63,252 nucleotides of DNA, filler included, from Candidatus Rokuibacteriota bacterium (GCA_031406795.1; 9 parts of 9 records of this genome joined end to end with filler, not necessarily neighbours in it), one strand, 5' to 3'; positions 6,558-57,204 are shown, numbered from the whole stretch's first letter. Notes: generated from the letters alone by a model not told the origin. A program made the numbers and translations.

Positions 6558-7705
6558 GCGCCCGCGGCCGCGCGGTGCGCTCGCGCTGCCTGCTGCTTCT
6601 GGTTCTTGCGCAGGCGCTGGCGGCCTGCGGGAAACAGCCGGAATCGTCGCCGCCGCAGTCCGCACCGCCCGGGACGATCCGCGAGCTGACCGATGGCGCC
6701 AGCGTCACGACCGACGTCAACGCCCGCGCGCCCGCCTTCGCCCGGACCGACTTCGAAGGCGCGCTGGTACGCACTCAGGACGCCATCGGGTCCAAGGTCC
6801 TGCTGCTGGACTTCTGGTCGGTCTTCTGCCAGTCCTGCCTGCAGGAGATGCCCTTTCTTCAGGAACTGCACCGGCGCCACGCCGCCGAGGGTCTGCAGAT
6901 CGTCGGGGTGAACACCGACTTCTTTCCGAAGGAGCGCATCGTCAAATTCATGGAGAAGACGGGCCTGGCCCTGCCGTACCCGCTGATCCATGACCGCGAC
7001 CAGAGCCTGAGCAAACTCTTCTCGGTCGAGGCGCTCCCGGTGCTCGTGCTCATCGACTCGTCGGGCTGGATCCGCATGGTGCACCTGGGCTACAAGCCCG
7101 GCGACGAGCGCGAGATCGAGCGGCGCGTCAGCAAGGCCTGCGGCCGCATCAAGGAGACCGTCGTCACCCTGCAGCCGGTCGGCGGCACGACGGCTTTTTC
7201 GCCGCCGGAGAAGGGGCGGGCGCCGGCGGCGGCGGGGACGATGGTCGATGGGTTTGTTGCGCTCGACGGCGAGGGGCGCGAAGCGCCGTTTGCCGGTTGG
7301 CGCGCCGGCTCGCCGGTCGTGGTCTTCTTCTGGTCGCTGTTCTGCCAGCCTTGCCGGGAAGAATTCGGCCGGCTGGAGAATCTCGCGGCGCACCCGCCGG
7401 TGCCGGGGCTCAAAGTGCTCGCGGTGAATGTCGATTCGCCGAAGCTGCGGCCGCAGGCGGCGCGCTTTCTCTCGGCTCGGGGCGACAGCATCACCGGGGT
7501 TTTCGACCGCGAACAGGGGGGCGGCCGCTACGAGATCGCGGGGCTCTTCGGGGTGAGTTCGACCCCGAGCACGTTCCTTGTCGGGGCGGACGGCACGGTG
7601 CGCGCAGCCTGGTCGGGGGAGGTCGACGAGGCGACGCTCGCCGCGGGCATCCGGGCGAACCTGGCGCCCGGCGGCGGCGGCGGAAGCACGGGGGCGAGGC
7701 GATGA
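6548..7705 (+). CDS. Lipoprotein with two TlpA/ResA-like thioredoxin domains
   Basis: Lipobox LAAC; DFWSVFCQSC and FFWSLFCQPC motifs; start codon uncertain (6548 or 6575). Confidence 0.82.
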   Translation: MELSARGRAVRSRCLLLLVLAQALAACGKQPESSPPQSAPPGTIRELTDGASVTTDVNARAPAFARTDFEGALVRTQDAIGSKVLLLDFWSVFCQSCLQEMPFLQELHRRHAAEGLQIVGVNTDFFPKERIVKFMEKTGLALPYPLIHDRDQSLSKLFSVEALPVLVLIDSSGWIRMVHLGYKPGDEREIERRVSKACGRIKETVVTLQPVGGTTAFSPPEKGRAPAAAGTMVDGFVALDGEGREAPFAGWRAGSPVVVFFWSLFCQPCREEFGRLENLAAHPPVPGLKVLAVNVDSPKLRPQAARFLSARGDSITGVFDREQGGGRYEIAGLFGVSSTPSTFLVGADGTVRAAWSGEVDEATLAAGIRANLAPGGGGGSTGARR

Positions 7706-8187
7706 ACCGGGCGGTCCTTGGCACGCTTGCCGGACTCCTTGCGCTGTTGGCGCTTCCTGCAAGTCAAGTCATGGGGCAGGCTGCCGCTCCCGCTGACCCC
7801 GTCGCTCCGGCCGCCGGGGATGCCGTGGTCGGGCTCTCCGTCCGGGGCGCCAACCGCGCCTATCCGACGGCGCTTTTTACCGCACGGCGGGTGGTGAACG
7901 ACGTGGTCGGCGACCTGGAGGTGGCGGTCTTCCACGACCCGGAGCGCGGTTTGAGCGCGGCCTGGTTTCGCCTGGTGCGCGGCGAGCCGATCGAATTCTC
8001 CGGCTCGGCCGCCGGCACCGTGGGGGATGACCTGACAACCATCACGCGCTGGGACCTGGCGACCGGCGTGGCCGTGGGGGGGAACCTGCAAGGGCAGCGG
8101 CTGATCCCGCTGGCCGTCTCGACGACGACGTGGGCCAGCTGGGCCGCAACCCACCCGAACGCCCAACTCTTCCGCGAAGGCCGCTGA
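7702..8187 (+). CDS. Exported DUF3179-like protein
   Basis: Signal peptide; RAYP, VVND.VG, TRWDL.TG, TTW..W...HP; ATGA overlap with the previous gene. Confidence 0.7.
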   Translation: MNRAVLGTLAGLLALLALPASQVMGQAAAPADPVAPAAGDAVVGLSVRGANRAYPTALFTARRVVNDVVGDLEVAVFHDPERGLSAAWFRLVRGEPIEFSGSAAGTVGDDLTTITRWDLATGVAVGGNLQGQRLIPLAVSTTTWASWAATHPNAQLFREGR

Positions 8188-14740: not shown

Positions 14741-14840
14741 NNNNNNNNNNNNNNNNNNNNNNNNNNNNNNNNNNNNNNNNNNNNTTAATTAATTAANNNN
14801 NNNNNNNNNNNNNNNNNNNNNNNNNNNNNNNNNNNNNNNN
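14741..14840. other. Artificial contig spacer
   Basis: N44-TTAATTAATTAA-N44; identical spacers start at 29853, 33687, 38201, 41603, 45155, 50107 and 57105. Confidence 0.99.
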
Positions 14841-29852: not shown

Positions 29853-29984
29853 NNNNNNNNNNNNNNNNNNNNNNNNNNNNNNNNNNNNNNNNNNNNTTAA
29901 TTAATTAANNNNNNNNNNNNNNNNNNNNNNNNNNNNNNNNNNNNNNNNNNNNTCTCGAAGACCGAGACGACGTGCTCGAGAAGC

Positions 29985-30233
29985 TCAGACGGCCCCATGC
30001 GACATCCTGTGCGCCACTTCGCGGCGGACGCGCTCCGTGGTCCAGTCCGGATGAGTGCTTGAAAGGTGTGCCTTCAGCATGCAACAAGACGACTCCCAAA
30101 GCGCAAAGGAGGTCCGAAGCCGCTCGGCGGGCGTCTTGCGTCTCAGGATCGAGGCCATTTCGCGATCCATGACTTCGATCTGCCCGGGATCGAGGCGCTG
30201 TAAACACGCGCTCATTTTATGGATGTTGTTCAC
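29985..30233 (-). CDS. Small antitoxin-like partner of a nucleotidyltransferase
   Basis: ILRRKTPAERL...HPDWT; overlaps the start of MGPSELL, which continues at 45350. Confidence 0.7.
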   Translation of the reverse strand: MNNIHKMSACLQRLDPGQIEVMDREMASILRRKTPAERLRTSFALWESSCCMLKAHLSSTHPDWTTERVRREVAHRMSHGAV

Positions 30234-30337
30234 AATCTACCGCCGGTCCCCGTCGCAGGGGACAGCCGGAAAGAAAGCAACGGTCGTTGCAATCACGCTG
30301 TGTTGATTATGAAGCATAAGCTTGTTTTTCAAGCATA
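30231..30337 (-). promoter_or_regulatory. Promoter plus ops-like leader element A, copy 1
   Basis: TTGAAA-N15-CATAAT, AGCGTGA, gtcccc/ggggac hairpin, GGCGGTAGATTG overlapping GTG. Confidence 0.75.
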
Positions 30338-30960: not shown

Positions 30961-31374
30961 TCATGGTGGGGAAGCGCCCTCACCCGCCGTCACCAGCGCC
31001 CGAATGCGGGCCGCGACATCCTCCACCTCTCGGCGGAGGGCCGGCAGATCCTCGGCAGCGAAGTCGAACGTGGGGTTGTAATCGGCTTCTTCGCGGTACT
31101 TCATCAGCTTGGCGAAGAGTTGCGTCGCGCTCCGGTCCAGCGGCCCATCTTTCACGAAGTTTTGCCCGAGCATCCGCAATGCACCCTCGTGGCTGCGCAC
31201 CTCCAGGCCCTGGGTGAGGAGCAGTGCGCGCACGAGGTACAGAAACGCGTAATAGAGCTTGGAGACGGCATCGTTGACGAAACCGTGATCGATCAGGACC
31301 TCGAGCGCTTGAAAGGCGCGCTCGGCACGCGCCAACTCGTCAGCGATGTTACGTTCGCGGTTTTTCTGGTTCAC
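30961..31374 (-). CDS. HEPN-domain protein
   Basis: AVSKLYYAF, SHEG, REEADY; GTGA overlap with the MNT gene. Confidence 0.85.
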   Translation of the reverse strand: MNQKNRERNIADELARAERAFQALEVLIDHGFVNDAVSKLYYAFLYLVRALLLTQGLEVRSHEGALRMLGQNFVKDGPLDRSATQLFAKLMKYREEADYNPTFDFAAEDLPALRREVEDVAARIRALVTAGEGASPP

Positions 31375-31763
31375 AGGGGCACACCCTCCCGTTCGATATC
31401 CGCGGCAATGCGACGCTCGCGCTCCTTGAGCTCCCGAAAATGATCTGCGGAGAATAGCAGGAAGGAAACCGGGAAATTGTGGTGAGCTTCCACCGCGCAC
31501 ACGGCGTCGAGGATGCGGGTGTGCTCCGCGCGGGTGAGGTGCTCCACAACTGCGGCGACATCGATATCGGATCTCGGCTCCCAATCACCGCGGGCGCGCG
31601 AACCGAAAAGCACAAACCTGGTGAGACGCGAACCGGCGATGGCGCTCACCGTCTGCTTGAGCTCACGCAATATGGCTGTAACGTCGGGCGCAGACTTCGG
31701 ATCGCTGCCAGCTGGACGCCCCTCGGTGAGGAAGGAAAACTCCTGCGCGGCAAGATCGATCAC
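31371..31763 (-). CDS. Minimal nucleotidyltransferase (MNT) antitoxin
   Basis: LFGSRARGDWEPRSDID. Confidence 0.88.
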   Translation of the reverse strand: MIDLAAQEFSFLTEGRPAGSDPKSAPDVTAILRELKQTVSAIAGSRLTRFVLFGSRARGDWEPRSDIDVAAVVEHLTRAEHTRILDAVCAVEAHHNFPVSFLLFSADHFRELKERERRIAADIEREGVPL

Positions 31764-31872
31764 GACAAGCTACCGCCGATCCCCATCGCAGGGGACTGCC
31801 GGAAAGGAGGCAGCAACGGCCGCATTCACGGTGAGTTCATCATGAATGATAAGTACTTGTCTTTCAAGCACA
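31764..31872 (-). promoter_or_regulatory. Promoter plus ops-like leader element A, copy 2
   Basis: TTGAAA-N17-CATGAT, ACCGTGA, hairpin, GGCGGTAGCTTGTC then GTG. Confidence 0.78.
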
Positions 31873-33686: not shown

Positions 33687-33811
33687 NNNNNNNNNNNNNN
33701 NNNNNNNNNNNNNNNNNNNNNNNNNNNNNNTTAATTAATTAANNNNNNNNNNNNNNNNNNNNNNNNNNNNNNNNNNNNNNNNNNNNACCCCTCTTTATGA
33801 GCGCAGAGCAT

Positions 33812-38200: not shown

Positions 38201-38300
38201 NNNNNNNNNNNNNNNNNNNNNNNNNNNNNNNNNNNNNNNNNNNNTTAATTAATTAANNNNNNNNNNNNNNNNNNNNNNNNNNNNNNNNNNNNNNNNNNNN

Positions 38301-41602: not shown

Positions 41603-41702
41603 NNNNNNNNNNNNNNNNNNNNNNNNNNNNNNNNNNNNNNNNNNNNTTAATTAATTAANNNNNNNNNNNNNNNNNNNNNNNNNNNNNNNNNNNNNNNNNN
41701 NN

Positions 41703-45154: not shown

Positions 45155-45349
45155 NNNNNNNNNNNNNNNNNNNNNNNNNNNNNNNNNNNNNNNNNNNNTT
45201 AATTAATTAANNNNNNNNNNNNNNNNNNNNNNNNNNNNNNNNNNNNNNNNNNNNGTCGTCTTGTTGCATGCTGAAGGCACACCTTTCAAGCACTCATCCG
45301 GACTGGACCACGGAGCGCGTCCGCCGCGAAGTGGCGCACAGGATGTCGC

Positions 45350-45922: not shown

Positions 45923-45985
45923 TACGAAGAGCATTACCAAGGCGAGGGCAGCATTGGAAATGAAGCATTGCGGGGAGGTGATTGC

Positions 45986-46200
45986 GTGATTGCTCAAGAA
46001 GTTCTGAAGACGGTGCGATCCTATGTCCGTGCGGCGAGACGGGCCGGCATCCACGTTGACAAGGCCATCCTCTTTGGTTCCCATGCTCGCGGGGCCGCTC
46101 GAGAAGAGAGTGATATCGATCTGGCGGTCATCGCGCCGGAGTTTGACGCCCGCAATCGGGAGCGTTTGACCCGGAAGCTCACAGAACCGCTCGCCGTGGG
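45986..46200 (+). pseudogene. Truncated MNT antitoxin
   Basis: LFGSHARG...SDID, then family similarity is lost. Confidence 0.65.
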
Positions 46201-46359
46201 TCGGATAACCACGCTCCGGGCATGGTGTTTACCACGACCTTCGACGAGCTGCTGCCATGCCCTCGTTGGCGCATCGCAGCGTTCGCGGCCGCATCGACAT
46301 CAAGTGTGCAACGCAGGCTGGGCATCGATTCACCAGTTGAAACCACGGAGGAACAGGCC

Positions 46360-46593
46360 ATGAACTGGAGCGAGCGCATTTCCCACGATTCCGCCATCTG
46401 CAAGGGAAGGGCCTGCGTGAGGGGTACGAGAATCATGGTCTCGACAGTATTGGACAACCTGGCTGACGGCGTATTACCTGAAGAGATCATGCAGAGTTAT
46501 CCGCCACTTACGCGCGAGGATATCCAGGCATGCATCGCTTACGCGGCGGCTTTGGCACCCGAGGAAATCCATCCTCTTGCACACGCGGTATGA
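46360..46593 (+). CDS. DUF433 antitoxin
   Basis: ICKGRACVRGTRI.V, YP.LT.EDIQACIAYAA; GGAGG RBS. Confidence 0.9.
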   Translation: MNWSERISHDSAICKGRACVRGTRIMVSTVLDNLADGVLPEEIMQSYPPLTREDIQACIAYAAALAPEEIHPLAHAV

Positions 46594-46682: not shown

Positions 46683-46718
46683 TTCAGCGTGGGGTACTAT
46701 GAATGACCCGGCCATCCT

Positions 46719-46860
46719 CCGGGAAAACCCCGATTCTCCTGAAATCCCTCTGCCTCGCCGCGCTTGTCAGCGGCTTGTCCCCGGCGGGGTATTAGGCCAA
46801 GTGCCAGCTGGGCTCGAACATCATCCCTGGTTTTTCCAGGCCAAAACTTCAGGTGGCCCA
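46719..46860 (+). repeat. Repeat element B, copy 3
   Basis: Matches the reverse complement of 30360-30499 and, as there, is followed by element A. Confidence 0.85.
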
Positions 46861-46881
46861 AGTCCGTCGCCGAATGGTGTT

Positions 46882-46988
46882 ATGCTTGAAAAACAAGCAC
46901 TTATCATTCATAATCAACACACCGTGATGCAACGACCCTTGCCTCCTCTCCGGCAGTCCCCTGCAATGGGGACCGGCGGTAGCTTGTG
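46882..46988 (+). promoter_or_regulatory. Promoter plus ops-like leader element A, copy 3
   Basis: TTGAAA(46886)-N17-CATAAT(46909), ACCGTGA, hairpin, GGCGGTAGCTTG (46975-46986) overlapping GTG. Confidence 0.8.
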
Positions 46989-47369
46989 AACAAGTCAGAT
47001 TTCACGCAGTTTTCCCGCTTGATGAAGCGCCTCGAAGAGGATCCGAACGTCCGGTTCGCCCTGATCTTCGGATCCCAGGCGCGCGGGAGGGCGCGCAGCG
47101 GCAGCGACCTGGATCTTGCCGTGTACTTTGACAAGCCTCCGGTCGGGCTCGATTACCTTGATCTGCTCAGCGAGCTGAGCGATCTCTCCGGCCGCGAGGT
47201 GGATCTCGTGGTCCTCAATCGCGCCTCGGCCATCCTGCGACATCAGGTTCTGAAGCACCGCGTCCCACTTTGTCTCAAGGATGATCCGGCCTATACAAGA
47301 TTCCGGGAGCGGGCGATGACGGATTACGATGTCTATCGGTACGTGAGCGGAGGCCCGGCCCATGGTTGA
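46986..47369 (+). CDS. mntA: MntA-type antitoxin nucleotidyltransferase
   Basis: FGSQARG...SDLDLAV, VDLVVLN. Confidence 0.88.
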   Translation: MNKSDFTQFSRLMKRLEEDPNVRFALIFGSQARGRARSGSDLDLAVYFDKPPVGLDYLDLLSELSDLSGREVDLVVLNRASAILRHQVLKHRVPLCLKDDPAYTRFRERAMTDYDVYRYVSGGPAHG

Positions 47370-47784
47370 CCCGATCCTGATCGAACGCAAGCTCCGGAAG
47401 ATCGAGGGTTACCTGCGCGAGCTTCGGAGCATCGGTGCGCGAAGCCTTGAGGAATTCAGGGGAAACGTCGTCACGAAGAGATTTGTCGAGCGGCAGCTCG
47501 AGCTTTGCGTAGAGCAGATGATCGATATCTGCAAGCATCTGGTCGCCGGGCTCGATCTTCCGGAGCCGGAAACCTACGCGGGTTGTTTCGATCTCCTGGC
47601 GCGTGCAGCGGTGGTGACCGAGAGCAACGCGGCCGTCTTCAAGGCGATGGCGCGGTTCCGCAACCTCTTGATCCACGGCTATGACGAGGTTGACGATGCC
47701 GTGACCTACGGGATCTTCTCGACGCGGCTCGGTGACTTCACCACGTTCGCCGGTGCGATCCGTGGGTATCTCGGCCGGACATGA
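47362..47784 (+). CDS. hepT: HepT/DUF86 HEPN RNase toxin
   Basis: RNLLIHGY (Rx4HxY). Confidence 0.9.
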   Translation: MVDPILIERKLRKIEGYLRELRSIGARSLEEFRGNVVTKRFVERQLELCVEQMIDICKHLVAGLDLPEPETYAGCFDLLARAAVVTESNAAVFKAMARFRNLLIHGYDEVDDAVTYGIFSTRLGDFTTFAGAIRGYLGRT

Positions 47785-47795
47785 TGGTTAGAAAA

Positions 47796-47860
47796 GTGAA
47801 CGCATCCTTAGGACGCGTTTGCCGGCTGTTCCCTGCGACGGGGAGCGGCGGTAGCTTGTG
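47796..47860 (+). promoter_or_regulatory. Leader element A, copy 4 (promoterless, degenerate)
   Basis: gtgaacgca...ccggctgttccctgcgacggggagcGGCGGTAGCTTGTG. Confidence 0.7.
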
Positions 47861-47867
47861 AGCAACC

Positions 47868-47925
47868 GGGAATTCTTCTTCGAGACCGGGCGCCCCGAAT
47901 ACCTCTTCCCCGCCACGGACAAGGC
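47868..47925 (+). pseudogene. fcl: Short fcl fragment
   Basis: [16 protein letters not shown], nearly identical to 49072-49128. Confidence 0.7.
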
Positions 47926-47958
47926 GGCAGAGAGATTGTTCCCGTATGCCCACTGAGT

Positions 47959-48204
<246 letters not shown>

Positions 48205-48272
48205 ATGATGGACATCAACGCCAAAATCTCCATCGCCGGCCACCGCGGCCTCGTCCGCTCCGCGATCCTGCC
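48205..48272 (+). pseudogene. fcl: 5' fragment of GDP-L-fucose synthase
   Basis: MDINAKISIAGHRGLVRSAI after a GGAGAGG RBS. Confidence 0.75.
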
Positions 48273-48289
48273 TAACTCATCGTAATTCC

Positions 48290-48393
48290 TTGATAATTGT
48301 GCTTTGATCCCGTATTGTTCTTGCACCGTGAACGCAGCCACCGCTGTCCGTTTTCCGGCAGTCCCCTGCGATGGGGACCGGCGGTAGCTTGTC
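48290..48393 (+). promoter_or_regulatory. Promoter plus ops-like leader element A, copy 5
   Basis: TTGATA-N17-TATTGT, ACCGTGA at 48325, hairpin, GGCGGTAGCTTGTC then ATG. Confidence 0.8.
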
Positions 48394-48852
48394 ATGTTCG
48401 ATCTCTACGCTGAACTGTCATCCCTGATCATGCGCTTCGAGCGGGACGAAGTCTCTTACGCGCTCTGCGGGGGGATGGCCATGGCCGTACACGGTTTCGT
48501 GCGCGCCACAGAGGACATCGACGTCATCGTTCCCCCCGAAGCATTGGAGTTGGCTCTTGGCGCGGCGCGCGCGGCTGGTTTCGACATCGTGAATCCTCCC
48601 GTGAGTTTCGCCGGGGGAAAAGTTCCCATGCACCGGGCCTGCAAGACCGAACCGGAGGTCGGTGACTTTCTTGCGCTTGACCTCCTCGTTGTGACGCCGG
48701 CGACGGCGGCAATCTGGGCCGCGCGGTTGCGCGTCCCCTGGGAGCATGGTTCGCTCAGCGTACTCTCTCGCGAGGGGCTCATTGCCCTAAAATCACTGCG
48801 CAACAGCCTGCAGGACCAGGCCGACATCGGCCGCCTCAAAGGTGAGGAATGA
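48394..48852 (+). CDS. Nucleotidyltransferase-fold protein
   Basis: YALCGGMAMAVHG..RATEDID, LIALK, QDQADI. Confidence 0.82.
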   Translation: MFDLYAELSSLIMRFERDEVSYALCGGMAMAVHGFVRATEDIDVIVPPEALELALGAARAAGFDIVNPPVSFAGGKVPMHRACKTEPEVGDFLALDLLVVTPATAAIWAARLRVPWEHGSLSVLSREGLIALKSLRNSLQDQADIGRLKGEE

Positions 48853-49034
48853 AGATCACGGACCTGACCGCGGCAGAGGTCACCCGCCGCCTCCGACGAG
48901 TAGCGGAACTGCGGCGTTTCTGCCGCGCGCTAGCAGCCATGAAGCCTCGAATCGACGGCAACCGCGGCCTCGCCGGCTCCACAAACTTTCGTAACTCCTC
49001 GGAATTACTAGGCAATTATGCAAAGCATCTGTAG
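48849..49034 (+). CDS. Small basic partner protein
   Basis: ATGA overlap; [16 protein letters not shown]. Confidence 0.55.
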
Positions 49035-49070
49035 GCTTGTTCGCACCGTGAACGCACCCGCCGCTGTCCG
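49009..49070 (+). promoter_or_regulatory. Element A, copy 6 (promoter and 5' half of the leader only)
   Basis: TAGGCA-N17-TAGGCT, ACCGTGAACGCA at 49045, joined at ccgctgtccg to fcl. Confidence 0.6.
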
Positions 49071-49920
49071 TCGGGAATTCTTCTTCGAGACCGAGCGCCC
49101 CGAATACCTCTTCCCCGCCGCGGCCAAGGTCGGCGGCATCCACACCAACAACACCTACCCGGCGGACTTCATCTATGACAACCTGCTGATCGAGTGCAAT
49201 GTCATCCACGCCGCATACAAGTATGGCGTCAAGAAACTCCTCTTTCTCGGCTCCTCCTGCATCTACCCCAAACACGCCCCCCAGCCGATGAAAGAGGAAT
49301 ACCTGCTCACCGGCGAACTGGAGCCCACCAACGAGCCCTACACCGTGGCCAAGATCGCCGACATCAAACTCTGCCAGAGCTACAACCGCCAGTACGGCAC
49401 CGACTTCATCTCAGTGATGCCGACCAACCTCTACGGCATCAACGACAACTACCACCCGGTGAACAGCCACGTCCTGCCGGCGCTGATCCGCCGATTCCAC
49501 GACGCAAAAGTGCGCATGGAAGGAACAAACGTCATTGCGAGCGAAGCGAAGCAATCTGACGCCCACCCAAACGACTCCTCCATTGCCCCCGATGGCACCT
49601 GGGTCCAGGCCTGGGGCACCGGCTCCCCCCGCCGCGAATTCATGTACGCCGGTGACATGGCCGACGCCGCGTCTTCCTGATGCAGAACTACTCCAGCAAC
49701 GACTTCGTCAACATCGGCACCGGCGAGGACATCACCATCCGCGAGTTGACCGAGATGGTCGCGCTCACCGTCGGCTACCAGGGCGAGATCGTCTGGGATG
49801 CGACGAAGCCGGACGGCATGGAACGAAAACTCCTCGATGTCTCCCGTCTCCACGCCCTCGGATGGCATCACAAGCACGCTCTGCACGAGGGGATGAGCCT
49901 GGCCTACCAGGACGTCCTTG
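49060..49920 (+). pseudogene. fcl: GDP-L-fucose synthase, 5'-truncated and frameshifted
   Basis: [40 protein letters not shown]; frameshift near 49675; KPDG. Confidence 0.9.
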
Positions 49921-50029
49921 CTCCAGGCGCACCTCTCGCACGCCCATCGCGAGTGGACCCCGGAGCACGTCCGGCGTGAAGTTGCCCACAGGATGTCGCA
50001 TGGGGCCGTCTGATCTTCTCGAGCACGTG
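49921..50029 (+). pseudogene. Second, diverged copy of the antitoxin/nucleotidyltransferase junction
   Basis: [14 protein letters not shown] and MGPSDLLEHV, compare 45320-45380. Confidence 0.75.
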
Positions 50030-50106: not shown

Positions 50107-50206
50107 NNNNNNNNNNNNNNNNNNNNNNNNNNNNNNNNNNNNNNNNNNNNTTAATTAATTAANNNNNNNNNNNNNNNNNNNNNNNNNNNNNNNNNNNNNN
50201 NNNNNN

Positions 50207-56980: not shown

Positions 56981-57204
56981 CCCCGTCTTGTCGGCAACGC
57001 GCTGAGGGGTGATTCTGGTGCCTCCAAACAAGGAGGAGCCGGGATGATCGAGAAGCAGCGGGAAGAGCTACGCCGACGAGTATCCGAGATTCAAAGTCGC
57101 AAGCNNNNNNNNNNNNNNNNNNNNNNNNNNNNNNNNNNNNNNNNNNNNTTAATTAATTAANNNNNNNNNNNNNNNNNNNNNNNNNNNNNNNNNNNNNNNN
57201 NNNN

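Follow-up and report, generated by a model that had tools for sequence, protein, structure and literature searches.

A leader with a kept core of about 48 nt, comprising a pyrimidine tract, a GTCCCC-N6-GGGGAC hairpin, one single base and the 12-mer GGCGGTAGCTTG, recurs in front of the genes of a bacterial exopolysaccharide (EPS) locus. Judged by its sequence, it is the promoter-proximal leader of the rfb/EPS operon of this lineage, and we tentatively regard it as a probable loading site of the ops type, which is reused as a portable expression module. The preliminary description of this DNA had seen in it a control element of toxin-antitoxin genes; it shows no specificity for such genes, but belongs to an EPS operon and was reused in front of them.

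The array and its leaders

The window, that is the whole stretch of DNA analysed (63,252 bases), consists of nine contigs joined by linkers of the form N44-TTAATTAATTAA-N44 (Table 1), and distances or adjacency across the linker points are artificial. The biggest direct-repeat family of the repeat scan, D1, is made up of these linkers. The genome bin to which the contigs belong (G000) comprises 278 contigs with 4.1 Mb and 67 % G+C and is 99.9 % complete. Leaders were found on the two contigs C26 (45255-50106), which carries leader copy 1, and C21 (29953-33686), which carries the copies near 30-32 kb. The reversed C21 shares 141 identical overlapping bases with the start of C26, and therefore all copies in the window form one array with a single reading direction: five full copies and a partial one on two contigs which are adjacent in the genome. 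Joints seen in metagenome contigs, for example 46928 to 48352 and 48392 to 50017, represent paralogous copies or variants and, coming from DNA contigs, are uninformative on transcripts.

Table 1 Features of the array segments and contig joints in the window
Feature	Position	Strand	Remarks
Promoter-like site TTGAAA-17-CATAAT, leader copy 1	46886..46914	+	10/12 consensus matches
Leader copy 1, type i	46921..46988	+	Covariance-model match, G000 C26:1658-1737
Hairpin P2, GTCCCC-TGCAAT-GGGGAC	46956..46973	+	0 mismatches; RNA folds; ends one base 5' of the word
ops-like 12-mer GGCGGTAGCTTG	46975..46986	+	Last G is first base of GTG start
MntA-type nucleotidyltransferase antitoxin	46986..47369	+	NF047752, 100 bits, cut-off 60
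HepT-type HEPN RNase toxin	47362..47784	+	NF047751, 108.5 bits, cut-off 60
Leader without promoter, type iii	47801..47859	+	Directly 3' of HepT stop codon; word 47847-47858
fcl fragment (from ~codon 45) and TviC/WbpP-like epimerase fragment	47860..48215	+	tblastn with G001 genes
fcl 5' fragment, ~22 codons then stop	48216..48289	+	Compared with intact G001 fcl; directly 5' of type ii promoter
Promoter-like site TTGATA-17-TATTGT	48290..48318	+	Promoter scan; homologous to G001 rfb promoter
Leader, type ii	48325..48392	+	Hairpin 48361-48378, word 48380-48391, ATG 48394
152-aa ORF, weakly DUF6036-like nucleotidyltransferase	48394..48852	+	E 5e-4, under cut-off
Degenerate promoter and leader 5' part joined straight to fcl, core absent	49009..49075	+	nhmmer, C26 3739-3816, E 2.4e-4
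fcl (GDP-L-fucose synthase) fragment, profile position 46 onward	49018..49680	+	NF047922, 296 bits, under 500-bit cut-off
Promoter-like site TTGAAA-17-CATGAT	31839..31867	-	Promoter scan
Leader, type i	31766..31832	-	Word 31777-31766; GTG 31763
Nucleotidyltransferase (31763-31374) and HEPN (~31372-30964) pair	30964..31763	-	Domain search
Promoter TTGAAA-15-CATAAT (30332-30306) and leader, type i	30233..30332	-	Word GGCGGTAGATTG at 30244-30233
Rv0078B-related antitoxin-like ORF	29988..30233	-	PF18993, 40.9 bits, cut-off 27.1; GTG overlaps word
GGCGGTAGNTTG sites	46975-46986, 47847-47858, 48380-48391	+	Word search
GGCGGTAGNTTG sites	31777-31766, 30244-30233	-	Word search
Linkers	14741-14840, 29853-29952, 33687-33786, 38201-38300, 41603-41702, 45155-45254, 50107-50206, 57105-57204		N44-TTAATTAATTAA-N44

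The promoter geometries given in the preliminary description were recovered. Three promoters (TTGAAA-17-CATAAT, TTGATA-17-TATTGT and TTGAAA-17-CATGAT) are detected by a promoter scan, and the one with the 15-nt spacer (30332-30306, minus strand) as well as the degenerate TAGGCA-17-TAGGCT (~49009-49037) were found by direct reading of the sequence. Equally, the described order of a hairpin and an ops-like word in five copies, with the start codon overlapping the word or following 2 nt on, could be reproduced: the 12-mer GGCGGTAGNTTG occurs five times in the window as compared to a mean of 0.73 in shuffled sequences, and none of 100 shuffles reached five. At 46986, 47858 and 30233 a GTG shares the last G of the word, and at 31763 and 48394 the start codon (GTG or ATG) lies 2 nt past it. 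No promoter precedes the copy at 47801-47859, behind which a GTG is fused to an fcl fragment; of the copy at ~49045-49075 the 5' part alone is left.

In each of the five full copies of the window a hairpin of the GTCCCC-N6-GGGGAC type stands one base 5' of the word; three of these hairpins pair perfectly, and the other two with one and two mismatches, respectively. Taken alone, the hairpin pattern shows no excess over chance in the window (13 found, 6.9 expected). The loops UGCGAU, UGCAAU, UGCGAC and GGUGAU are GNRA-like tetraloops with a non-canonical closing pair, and in the RNAalifold structure the hairpin is lengthened to 13 pairs, the word forming its 3' arm. Covariation in the stem, which the preliminary description had named as a check, did not clearly emerge among the copies of this genome, which show wobble changes and breaks, a double change at one of the 13 pairs and no clear compensation.

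Leader copy 1 is composed of a conserved GTGA box, a small variable hairpin with a pyrimidine tract, and the core. At least three types of the 5' half exist, each with a small hairpin followed by a U/C-rich tract (for example at 30290-30277, minus strand, with equivalents in other copies). In one copy these two elements were flagged as terminator-like, and they could act as a weak attenuator or pause 5' of the core. A long-range pairing between the variable 5' half and the GGCGGTAGC region beats shuffled sequences in only three of the 12 leaders (one of type i and two out of the three of type ii) and was therefore discarded as a general feature.

Further repeats and gene remnants were observed within the window. 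A second repeat of ~100-170 nt with small hairpins (46720-46810, plus strand; 30500-30400 and 30920-30850, minus strand) is found 5' of the promoters at 46886 and 30332, two of the three of type i, and also after one cassette; its three genome copies are all on C21 and C26. A short palindromic repeat within an fcl fragment (49528-49559) is found again on another contig (51884-51915), and a metagenome contig depth over 49467-49628 of two orders of magnitude above the flanks indicates that it is very widespread. At 45968-46593 a nucleotidyltransferase ORF is followed by a DUF433 ORF in another frame and a truncated small ORF, which are probably decayed cassettes.

Copy number and conservation

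Searches with the exact word, nhmmer and a covariance model yield a total of 12 copies in the genome, confined to the contigs C21, C26, C96 and C179 and all co-directional with their flanking genes. Among 11 copies the ungapped pairwise identity amounts to 0.81 in the core, to 0.38 in the leader's 5' half, and to 0.31 both in the promoter and downstream; among such recent paralogues the high identity of the core could be a result of gene conversion rather than selection. The exact word GGCGGTAGnnTG is present in eight of the 12 copies and in the copy of a congener (G001), and its 8-nt core GGCGGTAG in ten of the 12. In the whole 4.1-Mb genome GGCGGTAGnnTG occurs 11 times, eight of them on array contigs, and a reversed control word eight times. 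The three occurrences beyond the array are no more than expected by chance genome-wide, so that neither a wider regulon nor a further target operon can be seen; one of these sites, on closer inspection, falls within a gene of the opposite strand.

According to two studies, RfaH reads the bases G5 and T6 of ops, and the C3:G8 pair shapes a small hairpin of the non-template strand (PMC2871177; PMC5995543). G5 and T6 are kept in ten of the 12 copies as well as in G001. Exceptions are the orthologous rfb leader of the relative G003 (CC; word GGCGCCAGCCTG / GGCGCCAG), the diverged C179 copy (T6 to A; word GGCGGAGG) and the C96 copy at 6925 (G5 to C); one C96 copy has the word GGCCGTAG. Homologues which keep only the GGCGG part had been held in the preliminary description to speak against an ops-type signal, and this objection applies in part, as GGCGCCAG of G003 and GGCGGAGG of C179 alter the bases read by RfaH.

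Outside this genome, the covariance model was run on 100 other genomes and gave a match in the congener G001 only. Sampling of the lineage is thin, with five relatives; the 95 further genomes and one metagenome pattern scan yielded nothing. In the metagenome scan, for which the TAG of the word was left free, six loci were hit, none with TAG at that place and none in a related context. With relaxed thresholds the model matched G002 and G003 at E 0.1-0.6, and a pattern matched G003 once; all these matches fall in coding-like sequence and were judged to be chance.

Origin of the array in an EPS operon

The congener G001 has a single leader copy, situated after a TTGACG-17-TATATT promoter and before a MarR_EPS gene (TIGR04176, 120 bits, cut-off 88). 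This gene is followed by dTDP-glucose 4,6-dehydratase (rfbB), rfbA, other rfb genes, gmd and fcl (in short, MarR_EPS-rfbBACD-gmd-fcl at the operon head) and further on by a UDP-sugar dehydrogenase and a TviC-like epimerase. The copy retains GGCGGTAGCCTG and the CCCC/GGGG hairpin, and differs in the loop, the stem ends and the 5' half. Because the -35/-10 boxes, a GTGAACGC box just past the predicted start and the core all align between G001 and the array copies, the array leaders are paralogues of the promoter-leader of the EPS operon. The genome's own rfb operon (C126:3900-4500, L064 minus strand 315-185) still has its promoter and the leader's 5' part; in comparison to G001, a deletion has taken the 3' part of the leader with the ops-like word as well as the MarR_EPS gene, and has left a canonical GGGAGGG before rfbB. 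An orthologous rfb leader could not be recovered from G002, on account of a contig end, and rfbA was not found in G002 or G004.

The contig with the rfb genes, C126, joins C179 through gmd, and C21 joins C26. Past the sugar-nucleotide genes C179 carries PIN/MazE, Rv0078B-like, AbiEii-like and AAA_14/DUF4143 genes together with a diverged leader copy. Six copies are situated on C96 among AbiE, VapBC, HEPN/MNT, DUF2283, DUF4258/MqsA-like, BrnT and ATPase genes, and this contig ends with FecR-like, porin, Wza, Wzc and Wzy-like genes. On the opposite strand of the locus just two of 76 ORFs of at least 90 aa have a Pfam match at E≤1e-4, an IS integrase core and a GDSL fragment, both under the curated cut-off. 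Gene order and common direction thus place the cassettes inside one long EPS locus, between synthesis and export genes, where toxin-antitoxin and defence-like cassettes are intermixed with fragments of fcl and the epimerase.

Coreless fcl fragments were also observed before DUF5674 genes on C96 (L001; 9080-9190 and 9870-10000) and on L002 (11960-12010). The DUF5674 cassette occurs twice, on C96 and C179, with different upstream remnants.

A NusG paralogue as candidate factor

The preliminary description had called for a specialised paralogue of the RfaH, UpxY or LoaP type, and the genome indeed encodes one. In addition to the housekeeping nusG between secE and rplK, a second NusG-family gene of 168 aa is present on contig C122. 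Among the NCBIfam families it scores best with RfaH (92.3 bits), followed by NusG (72.9), UpxY (61.1) and LoaP (41.4); the RfaH score is under the cut-off of 144.5 for the equivalog TIGR01955. The paralogue is also present in G001-G004 and was not found in G005, and a scan of the genome collection with its alignment returned three close relatives only.

The side chains which contact ops in E. coli RfaH are K10, H20, R23 and R73, as stated in PMC2871177 and PMC5995543. Compared to that protein, the paralogue keeps K10, R16, T72 and R73, alike in G000, G001, G003 and G004, and has L-I at the two Rho-loop positions. In the housekeeping NusG these four residues are Y, K, T and P, with only T72 shared, and its Rho loop has I-F. 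Two of the four side chains that touch ops directly are not retained in the paralogue: H20 is replaced by Q, and R23 is located beside an alignment gap and is not conserved. Of the residues linked to autoinhibition by an alpha-helical KOW domain, F130 alone is identical, whereas K stands for E48 and V for I93. An AlphaFold2 model of low confidence, built on a five-sequence alignment, has a mean pLDDT of 46 and stays below 35 in the C-terminal domain. For RfaH in general, one study reports an early appearance of K10 and a late one of R73, and a distribution over 23 of 117 phyla (PMC7593976).

In the region upstream of the paralogue no conserved ops-like word was found across G000-G004. A long AT-rich perfect hairpin repeat is located just 5' of the gene (C122, L006 2195-2240) and again at ~7900-7960, ~5.7 kb downstream; it is probably an interspersed hairpin repeat of the lineage.

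The proposal of a JUMPstart equivalent which works through a NusG paralogue can therefore be upheld in part. A homologous leader heads the polysaccharide operon of G001, the copies lie in an EPS locus, and the paralogue has RfaH as its best family and four of six residues tied to ops. Against this stand the score below the RfaH cut-off, the lack of H20 and R23, and the Rfam model of JUMPstart (RF01707), which gave no match at its gathering score in the whole window and none even at E≤10 over 46700-49200, a segment with three copies inside.

Possible functions of the leader

To judge from the promoter-like sites, the leader would be transcribed, and transcription would begin 6-7 nt past the -10 box, at A(C/G)CGTGA, with starts predicted near 46921, 48325, 31832 and 30300. 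The nascent hairpin would then end 12 nt before T11 of the word; 12 nt is the spacing at which hairpins in the exit channel stabilise pauses. The word, on the non-template strand, may supply both a G(-10)/Y(-1)/G(+1) pause, a pattern which it suits in our own reading, and a loop of the non-template strand, and the RfaH-like NusG paralogue would load at the core. Once loaded, the factor would make RNA polymerase resist termination and Rho/NusG silencing across the long co-directional locus, and it might assist ribosomes at start codons without a proper Shine-Dalgarno sequence or GGAGG. Toxin-antitoxin and defence-like cassettes have been inserted between sugar-nucleotide and export genes, and leader copies, some with their own promoter, were multiplied and joined, in an untidy recombination process, to the opening codons of the cassettes. 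We propose that in this way the factor would be loaded anew at each copy, which would also drive expression of the gene that follows; the three promoterless copies (47801, C96 3668 and C96 4350) would re-load it within a transcription unit.

The close vicinity of word and start codon allows for a different function. The core might be a module for translation initiation and mRNA stability that acts without any NusG paralogue: GGCGG would serve as a weak Shine-Dalgarno sequence 6-9 nt before the start, the 5' hairpins would protect the transcript, and promoter, 5' UTR and start codon would together form a portable unit for the expression of captured genes. A GTG or ATG within 0-2 nt of the word is indeed found in eight of the 12 copies, which also have the spacing of 6-9 nt, and in five copies the homology reaches into the first 2-3 codons (GTG AAC AA / GTG AGC AAC). 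Furthermore, GGCGGAGG of the C179 copy is nearer to a Shine-Dalgarno sequence, and the rfb leader of G003, which lacks the word, has GAGAGGAG as a Shine-Dalgarno sequence instead. However, GGCGG has a central mismatch to the anti-Shine-Dalgarno sequence if GGAGG is taken as the reference, and GGAGG is absent before the start codon of every copy, yet present at other genes of the array. In the remaining four copies the start is farther away or absent, with the next real start ~40-95 nt off in three of them (C96 3668, C96 6925 and C179). The RNA folds make the word the 3' arm of the lengthened hairpin, a pairing that would impede ribosome binding, and neither the strict conservation of TAGCTTG nor the hairpin 1 nt upstream is explained. 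We consider such a module rather unlikely.

An equally small chance is given to a core without present expression function, that is a recombination scar or small hairpin repeat which duplication and gene conversion would have spread during the invasion of a rearrangement-prone polysaccharide locus by cassettes. The region forms a mosaic in which fcl and epimerase fragments recur beside the copies, and the junctions between leader and downstream gene fall at differing bases; from this it follows that the array grew by untidy duplication and recombination with no precise site-specific mechanism. One copy has the look of 48 nt inserted between two codons of fcl, the assembled contigs are broken at the repeats, and multiple copies are limited to one genome of the genus. 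A mere repeat of the REP or MITE type would be scattered genome-wide, unlike the 12 copies, which are restricted to this locus and all oriented with the genes, and the diverged orthologue in G001 retains word and hairpin at the head of its operon.

The ops-type loading leader, which we continue to prefer, can also be carried further. The leader might be the attachment and expression handle of a non-integron system of cassette capture, in which foreign toxin-antitoxin and defence genes are fused to copies of the operon's own loading site and the factor would shield them from Rho/NusG silencing and, at every insertion, restore transcription of the export genes, so that the signal would make the operon a permissive landing pad; this extension is very doubtful.

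Still less is to be said for a DNA operator. GTCCCC-N6-GGGGAC is an 18-bp perfect inverted repeat, in the ancestral arrangement between the promoter and the start of a MarR-family gene, and MarR proteins typically regulate their own genes through operators of this kind. It might thus bind a dimeric regulator such as MarR_EPS and contain no signal in RNA or on the non-template strand. However, MarR_EPS (TIGR04176) was not found at E≤0.001 in G000 and G002-G004, and its absence from G000, which still has 12 copies, weakens this explanation and makes it unlikely there; moreover, the repeat of G001 is degraded to CCCCA-N-TGGGG next to an intact word. Overall, an operator appears highly improbable.

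Integron attC sites, which have core sites RYYYAAC ... GTTRRRY and a length of 57-141 nt and form an array beside intI, were rejected, as reading of both strands revealed no R''/R' cores, there is no adjacent intI, and the attC words of the genome's three integrons have no occurrence on the array contigs. The three integron integrases above the TIGR02249 cut-off are encoded on other contigs (C235:42187-43122, C255:1191-2126 and C113:18537-19478). These integrons have AT-richer cassettes and classical attC sites of ~130 nt, and more attC words are present on C157.

Comparison with known systems

As far as can be read from the sequence, the word and its context make this an RfaH/ops-type leader, while the Rfam model and the RfaH cut-off do not. 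Among the NusG paralogues, LoaP of the Firmicutes likewise is a specialised protein that serves polysaccharide or antibiotic operons via 5' leaders, and it requires a hairpin of the leader RNA. A similar role for polysaccharide operons is fulfilled by UpxY of Bacteroides, according to PMC7593976. In contrast to both, whose genes lie inside the operons they act on, the paralogue described here is encoded elsewhere, and its scores with LoaP (41.4 bits) and UpxY (61.1 bits) are lower than that with RfaH. Integron cassette arrays are similar in their small co-directional cassettes, many of them toxin-antitoxin pairs, with a homogeneous short hairpin repeat in between. However, the repeat is here located upstream of each gene together with a promoter, and it has neither R''/R' cores nor an adjacent intI.

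PrfaH of IncX plasmids is an RfaH relative with an ops-like word close to its own promoter and downstream of it, and it is encoded in the operon under its own control, as described in PMC11880322; the paralogue has no such word upstream. In title-level literature searches no work was found on ops leaders before toxin-antitoxin cassettes or in this lineage, and none on Rokubacteria and NusG.

If the proposed function is true, RfaH-type anti-termination directed by ops exists in a Rokubacteria-like lineage, uncultured and distant from the enterobacteria in which it was defined. The signal would there have a fixed geometry of hairpin plus word, and could be multiplied within a single locus so that invading toxin-antitoxin genes are expressed. 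RfaH counteracts the silencing of foreign DNA, and in view of this role the reading would, if true, tie RfaH to the way in which islands of defence and toxin-antitoxin genes accumulate. The element itself is a compact candidate site of 48 nt for pausing and loading, with natural variants at key bases.

The closest likeness is to E. coli RfaH with ops/JUMPstart (waaQ, rfb, kps, hly, tra): over 12 nt, GGCGGTAGCTTG matches GGCGGTAGCGTG, the E. coli ops given in PMC11880322. In both cases the word belongs to the non-template strand of a promoter-proximal leader that heads a long polysaccharide operon, and a NusG paralogue is encoded elsewhere, here as a candidate factor with a monocistronic-looking gene and with K10, R16, T72 and R73. 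Unlike the E. coli system, the host belongs to a Rokubacteria-like lineage, whereas about 95 % of RfaH proteins are found in Proteobacteria (PMC7593976); the paralogue is under the RfaH cut-off and without H20 and R23, the leader gives no match to RF01707, word and start codon adjoin each other, and the locus contains twelve copies, most of them before toxin-antitoxin genes. What is unusual here is thus the lineage, the geometry of hairpin, one base, word and start codon, and the twelve-fold reuse of the leader before toxin-antitoxin and defence-like cassettes.
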